64,000 nt of DNA from the NCBI GenBank assembly GCA_964016885.1, contig OZ024749.1, positions 33,418,001 to 33,482,000 of the forward strand. The letters are read 5' to 3'. The stretch is from Eledone cirrhosa (Eukaryota). This document shows positions 925-63,462 of the stretch, in pieces (position 1 is the stretch's first letter; every line of letters starts with the position of its first letter). The translations under genes were made by a program, and so were the position numbers. Under the pieces are notes generated by a model, which worked only from the letters and a program-made list of their open reading frames with translations, was not told the origin of the DNA and did not search any database.

Positions 925-1298
925 GTAATGGTAGCTATGGTGCTTCCATAGCCCGTATGCAAAAATTAGCACTCAATATTCATACAGAGCAGAGTGTGAA
1001 TAGTATAACAAAACGAAAAATCAGTGATGCATCTGGACTCAGTCAGTTTATTGCGTGTTACAATTGTTTCGCCGGCAGGTAGCTCGAGACATGATCACTG
1101 TATGGATCTGGCTGATTCTACGGCTGCAGGTTCCTTCGAACACATGCAATTCGTTCGGAGCAAATTTTCTCACCTGCAGACGTAGAATCAGCCAGATCCA
1201 TACAGTGATCATGTCTCGAGCTACCTGCCGGCGAAACAATTGTAACACGCAATAAACTGAGTCCAGATGCATCACTGATTTTTCGTTTTGTTATACTA
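925..1298 (-). mobile_element. Family FE fold-back element, ~130-bp inverted arms (1001-1131 / 1172-1298) plus unpaired 3' tail
   Basis: Near-perfect inverted repeat ending in (TA)n. GAAA-CAATTG-TA HHR 3' half at 1233-1244. Bulged 3' hairpin at 971-995 on the minus strand. Confidence 0.75.
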
Positions 1299-1399
1299 TA
1301 TATATATATATATATATATATATATATATATATATATATATATATATATATATATATATACCCCGCCCGTCCCTTCAATCTATCTTATTTCTCATTCTT

Positions 1400-1545
1400 T
1401 CTTCTGGTGAAGGACTAGCGTCCGAAACGCTCAGACCCGCTTCCTGCTATTTCAAGCGTTAACCTAATATAATCCTTCCATGTACTGTACCGATTGTGTT
1501 GTTATTTCTGTTTACCTTTATACATATACGGATGGCTAGAATAGG
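1400..1545 (+). mobile_element. Family FB Penelope-like terminal fragment with degenerate minimal HHR
   Basis: CTGGTGA-A-GGAC-TAGC-GTCC-GAAA-CGCTC followed by TCAAGCGTTAACCTAAT; same tail as 23281, 47859, 52110 and 52833 (minus). Confidence 0.55.
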
Positions 1546-2073
1546 TAAAAGAGTAAAAGATATATATATATATATATATATATATATATATATATATATA
1601 TATATATATATATATATATATATATATATATATATATAACGAAGGAAATGTGGTAAGGAACCAGATGGACCATATATATATATATATACATTTATATATG
1701 AATACATTGTTATACTTGGGGAGGGTCATATTTGCGTAATATTGCCAGAATTAATAACAGAACACACTCACTGTTTGGTTGGTTTTCGCTTCTCGCTGTC
1801 TTTTATATCTGCGATATATATATATATATATATATATATATATATATATATATATATATGTATATATATATATATAAATATATATATACATATATATATA
1901 TATATATATATATAAATATATATATACATATATATATATATATATATATATATTTATATATATATATATATATATATATATATATATATATATATATATA
2001 TATATATATATATATATATATATATATATATATATATAATATAAGATCAAAAGATGGTTAAAGGAGTTCCATG

Positions 2074-2144
2074 TATTTTATTATGCGCATTTCAAAAACA
2101 AACATCATCATGCAATAATATTTGTGTTTTCATCAGATAAAACA
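2074..2144 (-). ncRNA. Type I hammerhead ribozyme (FC, inverted arm)
   Basis: Reverse complement of the 2282-2352 ribozyme. Confidence 0.8.
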
Positions 2145-2281
2145 GGAGAACATGATATGAAGGCTAAAAAACACTTGTGGATAGTGCAGTTTTAAATCAA
2201 CATATCAGTTTTAAATCAACATATGTTGATTTAAAACTGCACTATCCACAAGTGTTTTTTAGCCTTCATATCATGTTCTCC

Positions 2282-2352
2282 TGTTTTATCTGATGAAAAC
2301 ACAAATATTATTGCATGATGATGTTTGTTTTTGAAATGCGCATAATAAAATA
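2282..2352 (+). ncRNA. Type I hammerhead ribozyme (FC)
   Basis: Stem I TGTTTTAT/ATAAAATA; CTGATGA 2290-2296; AT-rich stem II; GAAA 2333-2336; palindromic stem III TGCGCA; cleavage after TA 2344. Confidence 0.85.
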
Positions 2353-3064
2353 CATGGATCTCCTTTAACCATCTTTTGATCTTATATTATGTATACTCCA
2401 GTCCTACAAACTGTAGAGTGCTTCTTATCCGATATCTGCATTGCTTTATTGTACTACAATAAAACTCACCTCCTACATTATATATATATATATATATATA
2501 TATTGTACCGATTAATGGGGAGATAATCAGTAATGGCTCCCTTTGCTGATTAATCGAATATGATAAACAAAACAGCCATTTATATTTTTTTATTAGGAGC
2601 AAGAAAACTATGGGTGTCAAAAAACATACACTGGATTCAACCTGCAGTGTTAAAACTTCCTTGAAATCTTCAATGGTATGCAACTTCGTATGGAAGAGGT
2701 CAACTAAACTTCGAGCATACCTTTGAGCAGTAAATAAATTCCTATTTCTTTTGTATTTGTTCATCTTTCAGAAAGTAGGTTATGATTTGTCGTGTCGAGC
2801 TATTTTATAGCTGATCAAACGACCATATATACCCCTCACTCGTTGGTATATCGTTATTGTTGGTCTTCAGACATCCAATTTATAGTCGGTGTTGGGTGTG
2901 GCTTAGAACGGCTGTAATTTATGTTAGCTACTCGGATACATAATAGGCTAGCTGGGTATATAATAGCTATCCGGGTATATAATAACTAGTTAGGTGGTTA
3001 TAACATTCCTAAACGACTTTAATAATACTATCCATTGGCGTACGGTGGATATCTTCTTACGTCT

Positions 3065-60023: not shown

Positions 60024-60025
60024 TC

Positions 60026-60402
60026 ATTATTATTATTATTATTGTTATTACTCCTTGAGTCTCAGTCATTGATGTTAGTTAACTGGAAAGTTTGTTGGAA
60101 TGAATATCAAGCCACTACCTGCAGCCTCAGATATTCAGGACGTATCGGAGGGTTCTTGCTGTTCCCAGCAAGCATGCCTTTTGAAGCGTTCCAAAAAGCG
60201 TGAAGCGGCCGATTTTCTTTAACCATCCCTGGAAACTTTTGGAGATAGTCCCTAGTGCGCCTATGACAATCGGGATCACTTTGACTTCATGGCAGTTCCA
60301 AATCCTTTTTACCTCCCACTTTAGGTCCTGGTATCGGTTAATTTTCTCCCTCTCCTTCTCTTGCACTCTCGTGTCGAATGGGCAGGCCACATCCACATCC
60401 AC
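60026..60402 (-). mobile_element. R4/Dong-like LINE 3' end: REL domain C-terminus with (TAA)n tail
   Basis: DVACPFDTRVQEKEREKINRYQDLKWEVKRIW..VKVIPIVIGALG..LQKACLLGTARTLRYVL*; (TAA)n at the 3' end. Confidence 0.85.
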
Positions 60403-60519
60403 AATCTATTTTCTTTAGGTGTTTTGCGAAGTCTTCCCCCTATTGGGGAATTTTTATTTATTATTATTATTATTATTATTATTATTATTATTATTATTAT
60501 TATTATTATTTGCATAAAA

Positions 60520-60780
60520 ATACCTCTGCAATATTTGTTCCGTTACTTTACGTTCTGAGTTCAAATCCCGCCGAGGTTAGCTTTGCCTTTCATCCTTACG
60601 GGGGTCAATAAAACGGGGTCAAAAAGTACTAGTAACACACTGGGGTCGATTTAATCAACTTTCTCCTTCCCTTCAAATTACCGGCCTTGTGTGAATCGTA
60701 GAAATTATCATCGATAAAATAAAGTACCAGTAATACACTGTATAATTGCTGGCCTTGTGCCAAAAGTAGAAACAATTATT
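60520..60780 (+). mobile_element. SINE fragments
   Basis: B box and body match. Confidence 0.8.
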
Positions 60781-62449
60781 AATTATTGTAAATGTATTGA
60801 AAATACATCAAACAAAACAGGACAATGGCGACGAAAATATAAAGAGGAAAAAGGAAGAGCAATGAAAATAGACATCAGACATGTTTGGCATAATAGTGAC
60901 AATGACTAATACTACTATCGACACCACTACTATTACTACTACTACCACTACTAGTAGTAGTATTAATACCACCATCACAACTATCACCACCACCACCACC
61001 ACCACCACTACCATCAATAACAGTACCACAACCATCACCACTACCACCCTACTACTCCCACTACCACCAATACCACCACATCTACCACCACCACCACCAC
61101 CACCACTACTACTAGTACTACTACTACAACCACAACTATCAGTACTACCACCACCACCAAAACCAACATCAGCCACAGCGCCACAACCATCACCACTACA
61201 CACCCTACTACTACCCCTACCGCCAATACTATCACATCTACCACCACCACCAACCCACCACCACTACTACTACTACTACTACTACTACTACTACTACTAC
61301 TACTACTACTACTACTACTACTACCTCTCCCTACTCACTCAACAACCCCCGCCCCCAAATGCACTATCACTACCTCTACCACAACTACCAACATCACCAC
61401 CACCATTATTACCAGTCAGTTAGTCAGTGTCACCTTAGCCGACCAGTTAAAACACACATCTGGCCCTCAGCAGTTTGTTAGTCACCTTAGCTGAACTTGA
61501 AAACATACCTCTGGCTCTCACTAGCCTGTTAGTCAGTGTCACCTTAACTGAGCTTGAAAACATACCTCTGGCCCTCAGCAGTCAGTCAGTGTCGTCTTAG
61601 CTGAGCAGTGAAATCACACATATTTGGCCCTCAGTGTGGCCGGGTTTTAAGACCCAGTCCACTTCTGATTTAAACAAATAATGAGAAATATATTTTGTTA
61701 CGTAACAAGCCTGTATGGACAGATTTTCAACATCCTCTCAACATTGTCATATGAGATTAAATAAAAAAAAAAAGATGTTAATCTAGGTGGTTGTACTTGA
61801 TAGAATCAATAGCAACAACAACAATAACAATAACAACACCATCAACAACAACAGTAACAACATGTTTATCAGGAAATCGGTCGGAAGTGGTGAAGTGGTG
61901 GAAATTCAAGTATTGTAAAACTTGATTTTTGATAGGAAATGGTGGTGGTAGTGGTGGCGTGGTATTGTGGTGATCGTAGTCGTTTGGTGGTGGTGATGGC
62001 AGTGGTCAAATGGTGTTGCGATAGTAGTCGTGGTATTTGTGATTAGTGATTGAGCTGATATATTTATCACGTTTTCCAGCTATAAGCATCTTGTCTTCTC
62101 TCTATATCTACGACTATATTTCAAATGTATACTTCCATCTTCTGAGACAGTCAGTGATTCGAGAGCGATGTTGGCAGTTATTTCTAGCAGATAGTGAAGT
62201 CGTGTACAGGCACCACCGTTGGCTCGTTATTGTTGGTGCTGTTGCTGTTTAGCCCCAAGCAGATCAAGTGAACTTCTTAACCATTTAGCTATATGTGTCC
62301 ACATTTTCAAACATAAAGAAATTAGGACTATAATATCTGATATGTCCTTCAACCTCTTTCTTCTTTAAAAGACGGCAGTATGGGATTTGAGCTAAGTTTC
62401 TAGCAGATCGAAGCTTGTAGTTATGGTATAGGGAATGGTGGTTGATATA

Positions 62450-62765
62450 TGAGCGGAGGGTTGGAGGTGATGGTTGGAGGTGATGGCTGGGAGTGATGGC
62501 TGGAGGTTATGGATAGAGGTGATGGTTGTAGGTGATGCGTTGAGGTGTTGGTTGGTGGTGATGGTTTGAGGTGTTGGTTGGTGGTGATGGTTGGAGGTGA
62601 TGGTTGGTGGTGATGGTTGGAGGTGATGGTTGGGAGTGATGGATAGAGATGATGGTTGGTAGTGATGGTTGGAAGTGATGGATACAGATGATGGCTGGTG
62701 GTGATGGTTGAAGTAGGTGATGATTGGAGGTGATGGTTGGAGGTGATGGTTGGAGGTGATGGTTG
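62450..62765. repeat. 12-bp minisatellite (GGTGATGGTTGG-like)
   Basis: Direct inspection. Confidence 0.8.
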
Positions 62766-63462
62766 AAATAAAAGGAGAGAACTGGACGAACTATAGATGA
62801 AAGTGAGTTTAATTAATTTGTTTGTTAGGGTAAACAAAGAGATGTGAAGGAAGAGGGAGAGAAGGAGGGAGGGGGAGATGAAACAGGACAAAAGAACCAG
62901 GCTAACCAGTCGGAAAACTATTCAGGTAGTTTTTAGTAATAATATTGGCTAGGTAAACCAGGTGGAACAAAGCGAGGAAACTACTGCCACCACTACCACC
63001 ACTACATATCACCACAACTAACAACAGCAGTAGTAGCAGCAATATCCCTCACAACCAGTAGTAACAGCAGCAACAGACCAGACGAACATGATCTATCTAT
63101 GTATCTATCTATCTATCCATCTCTCTCTCTCTCTCTCTCTCTCTCTCTCTCTCTCTCTCTCTCTCTCTCTCTCTCTCTCTCTATCTAACTATCTAACTAT
63201 CTATCAATCTATCTATCCATCTATTTATCTATCTATGTTGCATAGCATAAATGCAAAAAAAATTACACTATGTGTATGCATGCATATGAGCACGTCTGAA
63301 TTTATAAATGTATATATATATATATATATATATATATATATATATATATATATATATATATATATATATATATATCAGGATTGAACCAGTTTTAAACTAG
63401 TTAGAGCATTATTCAACAGAGTACTCGATACTTGGGATAGAGTGTGACTATGTTATAAAGAG

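Follow-up and report, generated by a model that had tools for sequence, protein, structure and literature searches.

What decides where the copies of a Penelope-like element (PLE) end? These elements are the sister group of telomerase. The origin of their tail and of their inverted-repeat insertions is called an open problem in the available text of Craig et al. (2021; PMC8557442). The question is raised here by a 64-kb stretch of DNA, the window, from the 3.0-Gb genome of Eledone cirrhosa (assembly GCA_964016885.1, contig OZ024749.1, positions 33418001-33482000). In this window, which is rich in microsatellites, a model working from the letters alone had noticed 11 hairpins with a 2-nt bulge near the 3' ends of supposedly unrelated elements, and had proposed them as a recognition signal for a reverse transcriptase (RT). 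All 11 hairpins were found at the positions and on the strands predicted (Table 1); a weak one with an ACTT/GAGT stem is doubtful and was single-copy in the 1.3 Mb searched. The visible hairpin of a tail marks the end of the inverted arm, and the tail itself stops shortly before another hairpin, which the insertion leaves out. The motif is real and is probably a clade-wide cis signal, confined to the Hydra clade among the families examined.

Twin hairpins bound the tail of Hydra-clade elements

The elements of the window have a common anatomy: an inverted arm, a whole or cut hammerhead ribozyme core, 60-130 nt, the hairpin, a tail and (TA)n. Upstream of the hairpin families lie open reading frames (ORFs) with the motifs RW[RK], DKT, CxCX5C, CxxC and CxH. 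RW[RK] with DKT (instead of DKG) occurs in loci L067 (family FH) and L060 (FG) and in the FA ORF, and RW in the FC and FE ORF starts. The CxCX5C linker, together with CxxC and CxH near the C end and no CCHH, was identified in L067, L060 and L090/L098. RT motifs and a C-terminal nuclease region of GIY-YIG type share a single ORF in L067 and L060; Pfam gave no match on these Hydra-type proteins, including those of the young 745-aa FH family. Because these ORF motifs agree with the Hydra-clade diagnostics of Craig et al. (2021; PMC8557442), we assign FA, FC, FE, FG and FH to the Hydra clade, an assignment based on the diagnostic motifs. The carriers are thus pseudo-long terminal repeat (pseudo-LTR) ends of different families in one PLE clade and not unrelated elements. 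Among named sequences, the best relatives of the proteins come from a cephalopod, pointing to an octopus-like host.

The available text of Craig et al. (2021; PMC8557442) describes for this clade the same RW[KR], DKT, CxCx5C linker and C-terminal CxxC/CxH, as well as hammerheads, (TA)n targets, pseudo-LTRs, tails and inverted arms. It reports the ribozyme and no leader hairpin, though the hairpin is present in its consensi. The tails measured 45-90 nt here, and the FH unit is ~3.9 kb long whereas Hydra-clade elements are usually <3 kb (PMC8557442). Hammerhead cores, predicted to self-cleave, were found in FC, FD, FH, FM and most metagenome loci. Hydra-type ORFs were common and diverse in the genome sample. 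The FH family (L067, L160-L189; e.g., G000:C1:142007376-142011086) is very young and abundant: at least 150 copies share 98-100% protein identity, and many 745-aa frames are intact; its hairpin was reached within the flank in 8 of 30 loci. The FG hairpin lies 3' of the ORF in L127 and L141. FD is a non-coding 522-nt tandem unit (L086) with a type I hammerhead, as in non-LTR retrozymes. FA also occurs in short tandem units (~299 and 257 nt) with both hairpins (G000:C2:356030062-356031000; L270), the L270 unit including the first codons; an autonomous family has here given rise to retrozyme-like units.

A tail that spans the interval from one hairpin to another should, in full-length relatives, be followed directly by a second copy. 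Such a copy was present in L067 (FH), L060 (FG) and L066. Indeed, full-length elements carry the motif twice, 44-118 nt apart, between the hammerhead ribozyme and the ATG, copy 1 being the hairpin of the original prediction and copy 2 lying just past the tail. A genome search with the tail end plus a loose hairpin pattern returned 307 matches for FA, 261 for FC and 9 for FE, compared with 0 each for controls with the reversed pattern. Beyond hairpin 2, a Hydra-type ORF start was read at 11/20 (FA), 4/6 (FC) and 5/6 (FE) loci. FD has a variant second copy, both in its 522-nt tandem unit and in the window. The tail is the segment between the two hairpins.

We then mapped insertion ends of FA, FC, FD, FG and FH (FE was not included), using natural full-length leaders as references against 1.32 Mb made of the window, the random sample and GIY-YIG loci. 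An end was assigned to a hairpin when it fell in a 23-nt interval from 20 nt before to 2 nt into it; the two intervals make up 12-18% of the reference lengths. In total, 188 of 206 3' ends lay before hairpin 1 (93 ends) or hairpin 2 (95 ends). Modal offsets from hairpins 1 and 2 were -5 and 0 for FA, +1/-9 and -3/-11 for FH, and -2 and -3 for FG, values good to ~5 nt as BLAST ends extend into (TA)n by chance. TATA or ATAT followed 146 of the 155 hairpin-class ends of FA, FH and FG, and other TA-rich leader spots were rarely used (0/85 ends inside the FA tail, 3/56 in FG). Among 59 outward-facing pairs, 48 combined a tail-less with a tailed arm, one had two tailed arms, none had two tail-less arms and 10 had an unclassified arm; hence 48 of 49 classifiable inverted pairs combined one end of each class. 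Both classes also occurred as solo ends. At metagenome loci, five of the eight mapped ends were before a hairpin. The FD tail is ~87 nt, outside the 39-63 nt originally given between hairpin and 3' end.

Structure and distribution of the hairpin

The motif of ~20 nt has the consensus R-Y-U-C-Y...R-UN-G-A-R-Y, usually followed by ACU. Pairing was analyzed on 55 instances picked by a sequence rule alone; the core letters U, G and A belong to that rule, and their fixity is also visible independently of it. Upper pairs 1, 2 and 3 were Watson-Crick in 51, 35 and 30 instances (permuted means 29.8, 15.8 and 14.0) and the outer lower pair in 51 (permuted mean 39.8), in a permutation test that ignores the relatedness of instances and in which the first upper pair has two states only. 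Upper positions 4 and 5 had no covariation beyond permutation in this set. The compensatory lower-stem variants ACTC/GAGT, GCTC/GAGC and GTTC/GAAC noticed originally are real. The upper stem and loop had been described as free, which is true of loop length but not of the first upper pair, in which the purine preceding the bulge is matched as C-G or U-A in 51/55 instances. The upper stems of FE and FG are weak. The sense strand is favored because the second upper pair includes eight G-U and zero C-A. The stem is followed by an unpaired ACU(C/U)U, which shows conservation too, chiefly in elements from elsewhere than this genome. Rfam gave 0 matches at E 0.5 for eight loci with full leaders, and the matches shown for the window (the best 150 of 422) were microsatellite artefacts.

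A strict scan of the window gave 25 matches, one site being counted twice; when the non-simple sequence was shuffled 100 times, matches averaged 3.3 and never exceeded 9. The count is far above chance, and it is inflated by repeated copies of the same families. We also collected inverted repeats from 99 stretches of 10 kb across the genome (990 kb) before any motif lookup, keeping the 59 of 139 in which one end lay at a simple repeat and the other carried a tail of 25-130 nt. The core was present in 38 of these 59 tails and in 14 of 25 tail families, with a shuffle mean of 1.2 (maximum 7) and a single match on the reverse strand; the hairpin was mostly 2-10 nt beyond the arm end. One of the 14 motif-bearing families is a poor match. 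The 11 families without the core include two near-variants missing the purine before the bulge and several Neptune/Nematis-like tails.

Outside this genome, we fetched 78 metagenome contig loci with a 43-protein alignment; 68 gave a post-ribozyme or pre-ORF region and were grouped into 42 Hydra-clade families. The core was found in 29 of the 42 (shuffle mean 0.47, maximum 3; reverse strand 1). Where the region from ribozyme to ORF was complete (20 families), the core was present in 19 and occurred twice in 13, copy 1 lying 42-67 nt after the ribozyme GAAA and copy 2 a further 44-83 nt on. The published consensi Hydra-2_Amil, Hydra-1_Ajap (two copies) and Hydra-2_Ajap, from a coral and a sea cucumber, also carry the motif. 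The 583-kb supplement holding them, which also includes Naiad and Chlamys consensi, contains the hairpin 3' strand plus ACT six times; four of these are in Hydra leaders or tails, and in the other two the 5' strand was not in view. The motif is conserved across molluscs, corals and echinoderms. Hairpin 2 of metagenome L191 shares 23 of 25 letters with an FC hairpin at 49288-49312, with the same loop, a different outer pair and different flanks. In L062 (G000:C1:32000001-32010000), a 36-nt satellite mimics the GTTC...TAGAAC form of the motif; its 243 loose-scan matches were set aside as chance resemblance.

The Neptune elements, to which the top GIY-YIG matches belong, were considered as mobilizers and rejected, since their ends have different tails. 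Behind L042 and L048 there is a class-A hairpin, but it belongs to a separate insertion on the far side of a (TA)n run and is not Neptune's own. Five Neptune, Nematis-like and Poseidon-like families were examined and had other tails, without the motif. Neptune families (3' ends of the L041 family, L037, L038 and L096) share a different short motif, ACT(C)GT(G/A)..., just inside the tail, and the L043 leader (G000:C1:83811300-83819300) has a TGTAC-containing segment inside the tail and directly after it, which hints at a twin signal in Neptune.

Features of the window

The coordinates of the hairpins and of their carriers are collected in Table 1. In addition, a further hammerhead element at 41292-41540 has a long degenerate version of the hairpin near 41430, with more than 10 matches in the sample. 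A 190-nt high-copy repeat without the hairpin forms a four-copy tandem at 27525-28291 and has ~20 dispersed copies (e.g., 6774-6963). The window also contains, at 11868-12902 (+), what we take to be the 3' fragment of an L1/Tx1-like element and, at 4171-4440 (-), a fragment presumably resembling a restriction-like nuclease of long interspersed nuclear elements (LINEs).

Table 1. Hairpins and associated element parts in the window (coordinates within the 64 kb)
Feature	Position	Strand	Remarks
FA hairpin copy 1	19077..19100	+	Hydra-clade PLE family, ~3.54-kb tandem unit
FA tailed arm	19013..19148	+	Hammerhead 3' part, hairpin 1, tail; full-length copies continue from tail end at 19148 into hairpin 2 six bases on
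FA tail-less inverted arm	18948..19011	-	Ends ~5 nt before hairpin 1
FC hairpin copy 1	2395..2419	+	Full-length copies: hairpin 2 and Hydra-type ORF start
FC hammerhead core and stem II	2290..2337	+	
FH hairpin copy 1	17338..17357	+	3' end of young family, 745-aa ORF
FH hammerhead core and stem II	17234..17275	+	
FH tailed pseudo-LTR fragment	17188..17417	+	
FE hairpin copy 1	971..995	-	Full-length copies: hairpin 2 and Hydra-type ORF start
FG hairpin copy 1	43855..43899	+	ORF, 3' untranslated region (UTR) and hairpin 2 seen in L060, L127, L141
FG, four tail-less copies	42957..43754	-	Inverted relative to the tailed one
FD hairpin copy 1	16343..16366	-	522-nt non-coding tandem unit in L086
FD hammerhead core and stem II	16441..16502	-	
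FD hairpin copy 2 variant	16751..16771	-	Outer pair mismatched; at unit start
FD tail-less inverted arm	16781..17061	+	
FM hairpin	41611..41629	+	Hammerhead at 41545-41568
FN hairpin	35242..35277	+	Candidate family member only
Orphan hairpin	55324..55350	+	Repeat-family member; 5 other matches in 1.3 Mb
Orphan hairpin	63423..63443	-	2 other matches in 1.3 Mb
Weak orphan, ACTT/GAGT	52008..52042	-	Single copy in 1.3-Mb sample; doubtful
Additional hairpin family	17619..17644	+	Outside the original prediction

How the two hairpins may set the ends

We propose, with a probability of roughly two in three, that the pair of hairpins serves as RNA docking sites for the RT-endonuclease, each fixing a start of target-primed reverse transcription. 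Docking of a protein on the hairpins is favored because copies end just before one or the other of them. The conserved, covarying structure is most likely read by the element's own protein, through putative RT binding. The original idea of an RT signal holds as far as such a structure is tied to element ends, but the tail's own hairpin does not mark the end of that tail. In the proposed mechanism, the GIY-YIG domain would nick (TA)n DNA, and the nicked 3' end would pair with AU-rich bases 5' of the bound hairpin and prime complementary DNA (cDNA) there. A start before copy 2 would yield the tailed arm, which contains copy 1, whereas priming from the other strand of the target, with a start before copy 1, would yield the tail-less arm; the two cDNAs would then join head to head. 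Non-coding units such as FD, which keep the ribozyme and both hairpins, would be moved in trans.

The bulge suggests how the protein could read the RNA. Kink-turn, selenocysteine insertion sequence (SECIS) and hepatitis B virus (HBV) epsilon identities were dropped, as the fixed letters do not fit them. A closer structural match than the HBV epsilon first invoked is the arginine-sandwich bulge of human immunodeficiency virus (HIV) TAR and of 7SK stem-loop 1, which in 7SK has G-C at the first pair. The G-C at the first pair of TAR involves G26, and in 7SK ASM3 the pairs A39-U68 and A43-U66 flank a bulge of 2 nt, UU (Pham et al., 2018; PMC6189040). As described in the available text of that paper, a paired purine is followed by a U-first bulge and two pairs, the second A-U, and the bulge U can join the A-U in a U.A-U triple over a stacked arginine. 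The hairpin studied here has a paired base before a pyrimidine-first bulge and an A-U two steps on; it differs in its unrelated origin and in carrying the bulge on the 3' strand and the loop on the opposite side. By likeness to TAR and 7SK, the core R-U-N-G-A / U-C-Y may form a U.A-U triple, and an arginine may stack within the bulge. Candidates for that residue are two near-invariant sites, the arginine of the R-W-[RK] motif and the R-x-R of the basic linker before WFNPP. A confident model of a relative (predicted local distance difference test, pLDDT, 90) best matched TERT in a fold search, which also gave DRT9, retron and group II intron RTs; this search returned no PLE structure and nothing on an RNA-binding site. 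Dimer prediction for the N-terminal 330 residues of P0026, run without an alignment, scored 0.00, which counts neither for nor against a dimer.

The 'stringent' 3' stem-loops of LINEs and short interspersed nuclear elements (SINEs) and the R2 3' UTR are RNA structures read in cis by an RT and borrowed by non-coding passengers; they lie at the RNA 3' end and are copied. The hairpin described here resembles them as an RT-read cis structure also used by non-coding units. Unlike them, it is duplicated and internal; each start is set by the copy on its 3' side, and the corresponding cDNA leaves that copy out. In place of one 3'-terminal stem-loop that stays in its insertion, there are two internal copies, the one adjoining each end being omitted from that arm.

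The closest biochemistry is that of the Poseidon element PAc (Frangieh et al., 2024; PMC11167929). According to the available text, its tail is delimited by two internal RT starts, ~55 nt of RNA must lie 3' of the start, cutting and extension take place on both target strands, and RT starts internally on uncut RNA in vitro. The docking mechanism agrees with PAc in the two internal starts at the tail's limits, in extension on both strands and in the need for 3' RNA. PAc differs in its clade and in its start, which is inside the ORF at an AC-rich stem-loop, and no repeated signal or conserved motif was defined in the text available (PMC11167929). The Hydra-clade motif was not evident in the sequence of its Fig. 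S1B as extracted.

Several observations weigh against hairpin docking, beginning with the fact that PAc, the source of the cited biochemistry, belongs to another clade. Eighteen of the 206 ends were elsewhere (six run into the ORF or the next unit and 12 are at other positions), as were 3/8 metagenome ends, and the mapped offsets are blurred by (TA)n as noted above. A second hairpin of FM was not found in four pattern searches, which gave scattered chance-like matches only; one possible aged copy with hairpin 2 is at G000:C4:26877957, and the FM ORF was not found either. A variant or no clear motif was seen in L064, L230, L231, L251, L264, Hydra-1_Crog and Hydra-1_Obim, all of the Hydra clade. 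Finally, local-context folding gave a core pair probability of ~0.8 or more in only 6 of the 11 window hairpins; it was below 0.5 in FA, FC, FM, FE and 63423-63443, where the hairpin is not the dominant fold, and the inner core pair exceeded 0.5 in only 59% of 46 metagenome-set hairpins. A fold that alone is marginal in ~40% of cases fits a site completed by protein binding, but limits the claim.

A more specific form of the docking model, which we advance tentatively and hold somewhat less probable than its opposite, is programmed twin priming: two protein molecules, clamped by arginine-sandwich hairpins on one leader RNA, would nick opposite (TA)n strands and start two cDNAs a fixed distance apart, making tail and inverted arm obligatory products of one reaction.

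Alternatively, the motif could be read as DNA. The endonuclease would cut element DNA at TA-rich bases just upstream and so trim longer cDNAs to two ends; it might sit as a dimer on the inverted repeat GCTC...GAGC, or recognize a hairpin in the cDNA. Both ends are in TA-rich sequence resembling the target, the available text of Craig et al. (2021; PMC8557442) attributes the tail to endonuclease-mediated resolution, and in D. virilis the tail is needed for endonuclease recognition of plasmid DNA (as summarized in PMC11167929). We consider this unlikely: upper-stem letters covary as pairs and loop length is free, neither of which double-stranded recognition needs, the wobble bias favors the sense strand and not the cDNA strand, hairpin 2 is absent from the inserted DNA at tailed ends, and PAc can initiate on RNA (PMC11167929). 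Quite improbable, too, is RNA processing, in which a host or element activity would cut or end the transcript a few nucleotides upstream of each hairpin and RT would start there. It predicts the same two classes of genomic ends, and PAc RNA-seq read ends coincide with start sites, but on uncut RNA PAc initiates internally regardless of the 3' extension (PMC11167929, available text), and the one-of-each pairing in 48/49 is simpler to explain if an intact RNA-protein complex holds both sites. That the 5' leader uses the twin motif for transcription (as a promoter) or translation, with ends clustering merely through TA-rich flanks, is very improbable: it does lie in an AT-rich leader context within ~135 nt of the ORF start, but other TA-rich leader spots take few ends, non-coding FD keeps both copies and one-of-each pairing is left unexplained.

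The elements, ribozymes, tail and inverted arms were already known; the hairpin and its twin arrangement appear to be new. The literature searched, which included PMC4209133 and left subscription papers and Repbase notes mostly outside, gave no description of the hairpin or its duplication in the text available. A PLE origin of non-LTR retrozymes has been proposed (Cervera and de la Pena, 2020, PMC7229834; Li et al., 2026, 10.64898/2026.07.22.740005), and the tandem hammerhead unit FD resembles these. The available text of both papers names no cis signal for mobilization, whereas FD (522 nt), with both hairpins, is tied to one PLE clade.

The sole in vitro study mapped two start sites and, in its available text, did not name what sets them (PMC11167929). 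A ~20-nt motif that occurs twice per element and predicts both ends makes the origin of the tail directly testable. It also provides a criterion by which short non-coding repeats and retrozymes can be linked with the element that mobilizes them, and a way to find true Hydra-clade boundaries in repeat libraries, in a 3-Gb genome where hairpin-bounded ends are dense (24 motif sites in the window). If twin priming is true, a telomerase-related RT would be positioned by an RNA element 3' of the template start, and other PLE clades may use twin signals of their own. If the docking reading is right, the hairpin would be a portable start signal for a compact 700-aa RT-nuclease.

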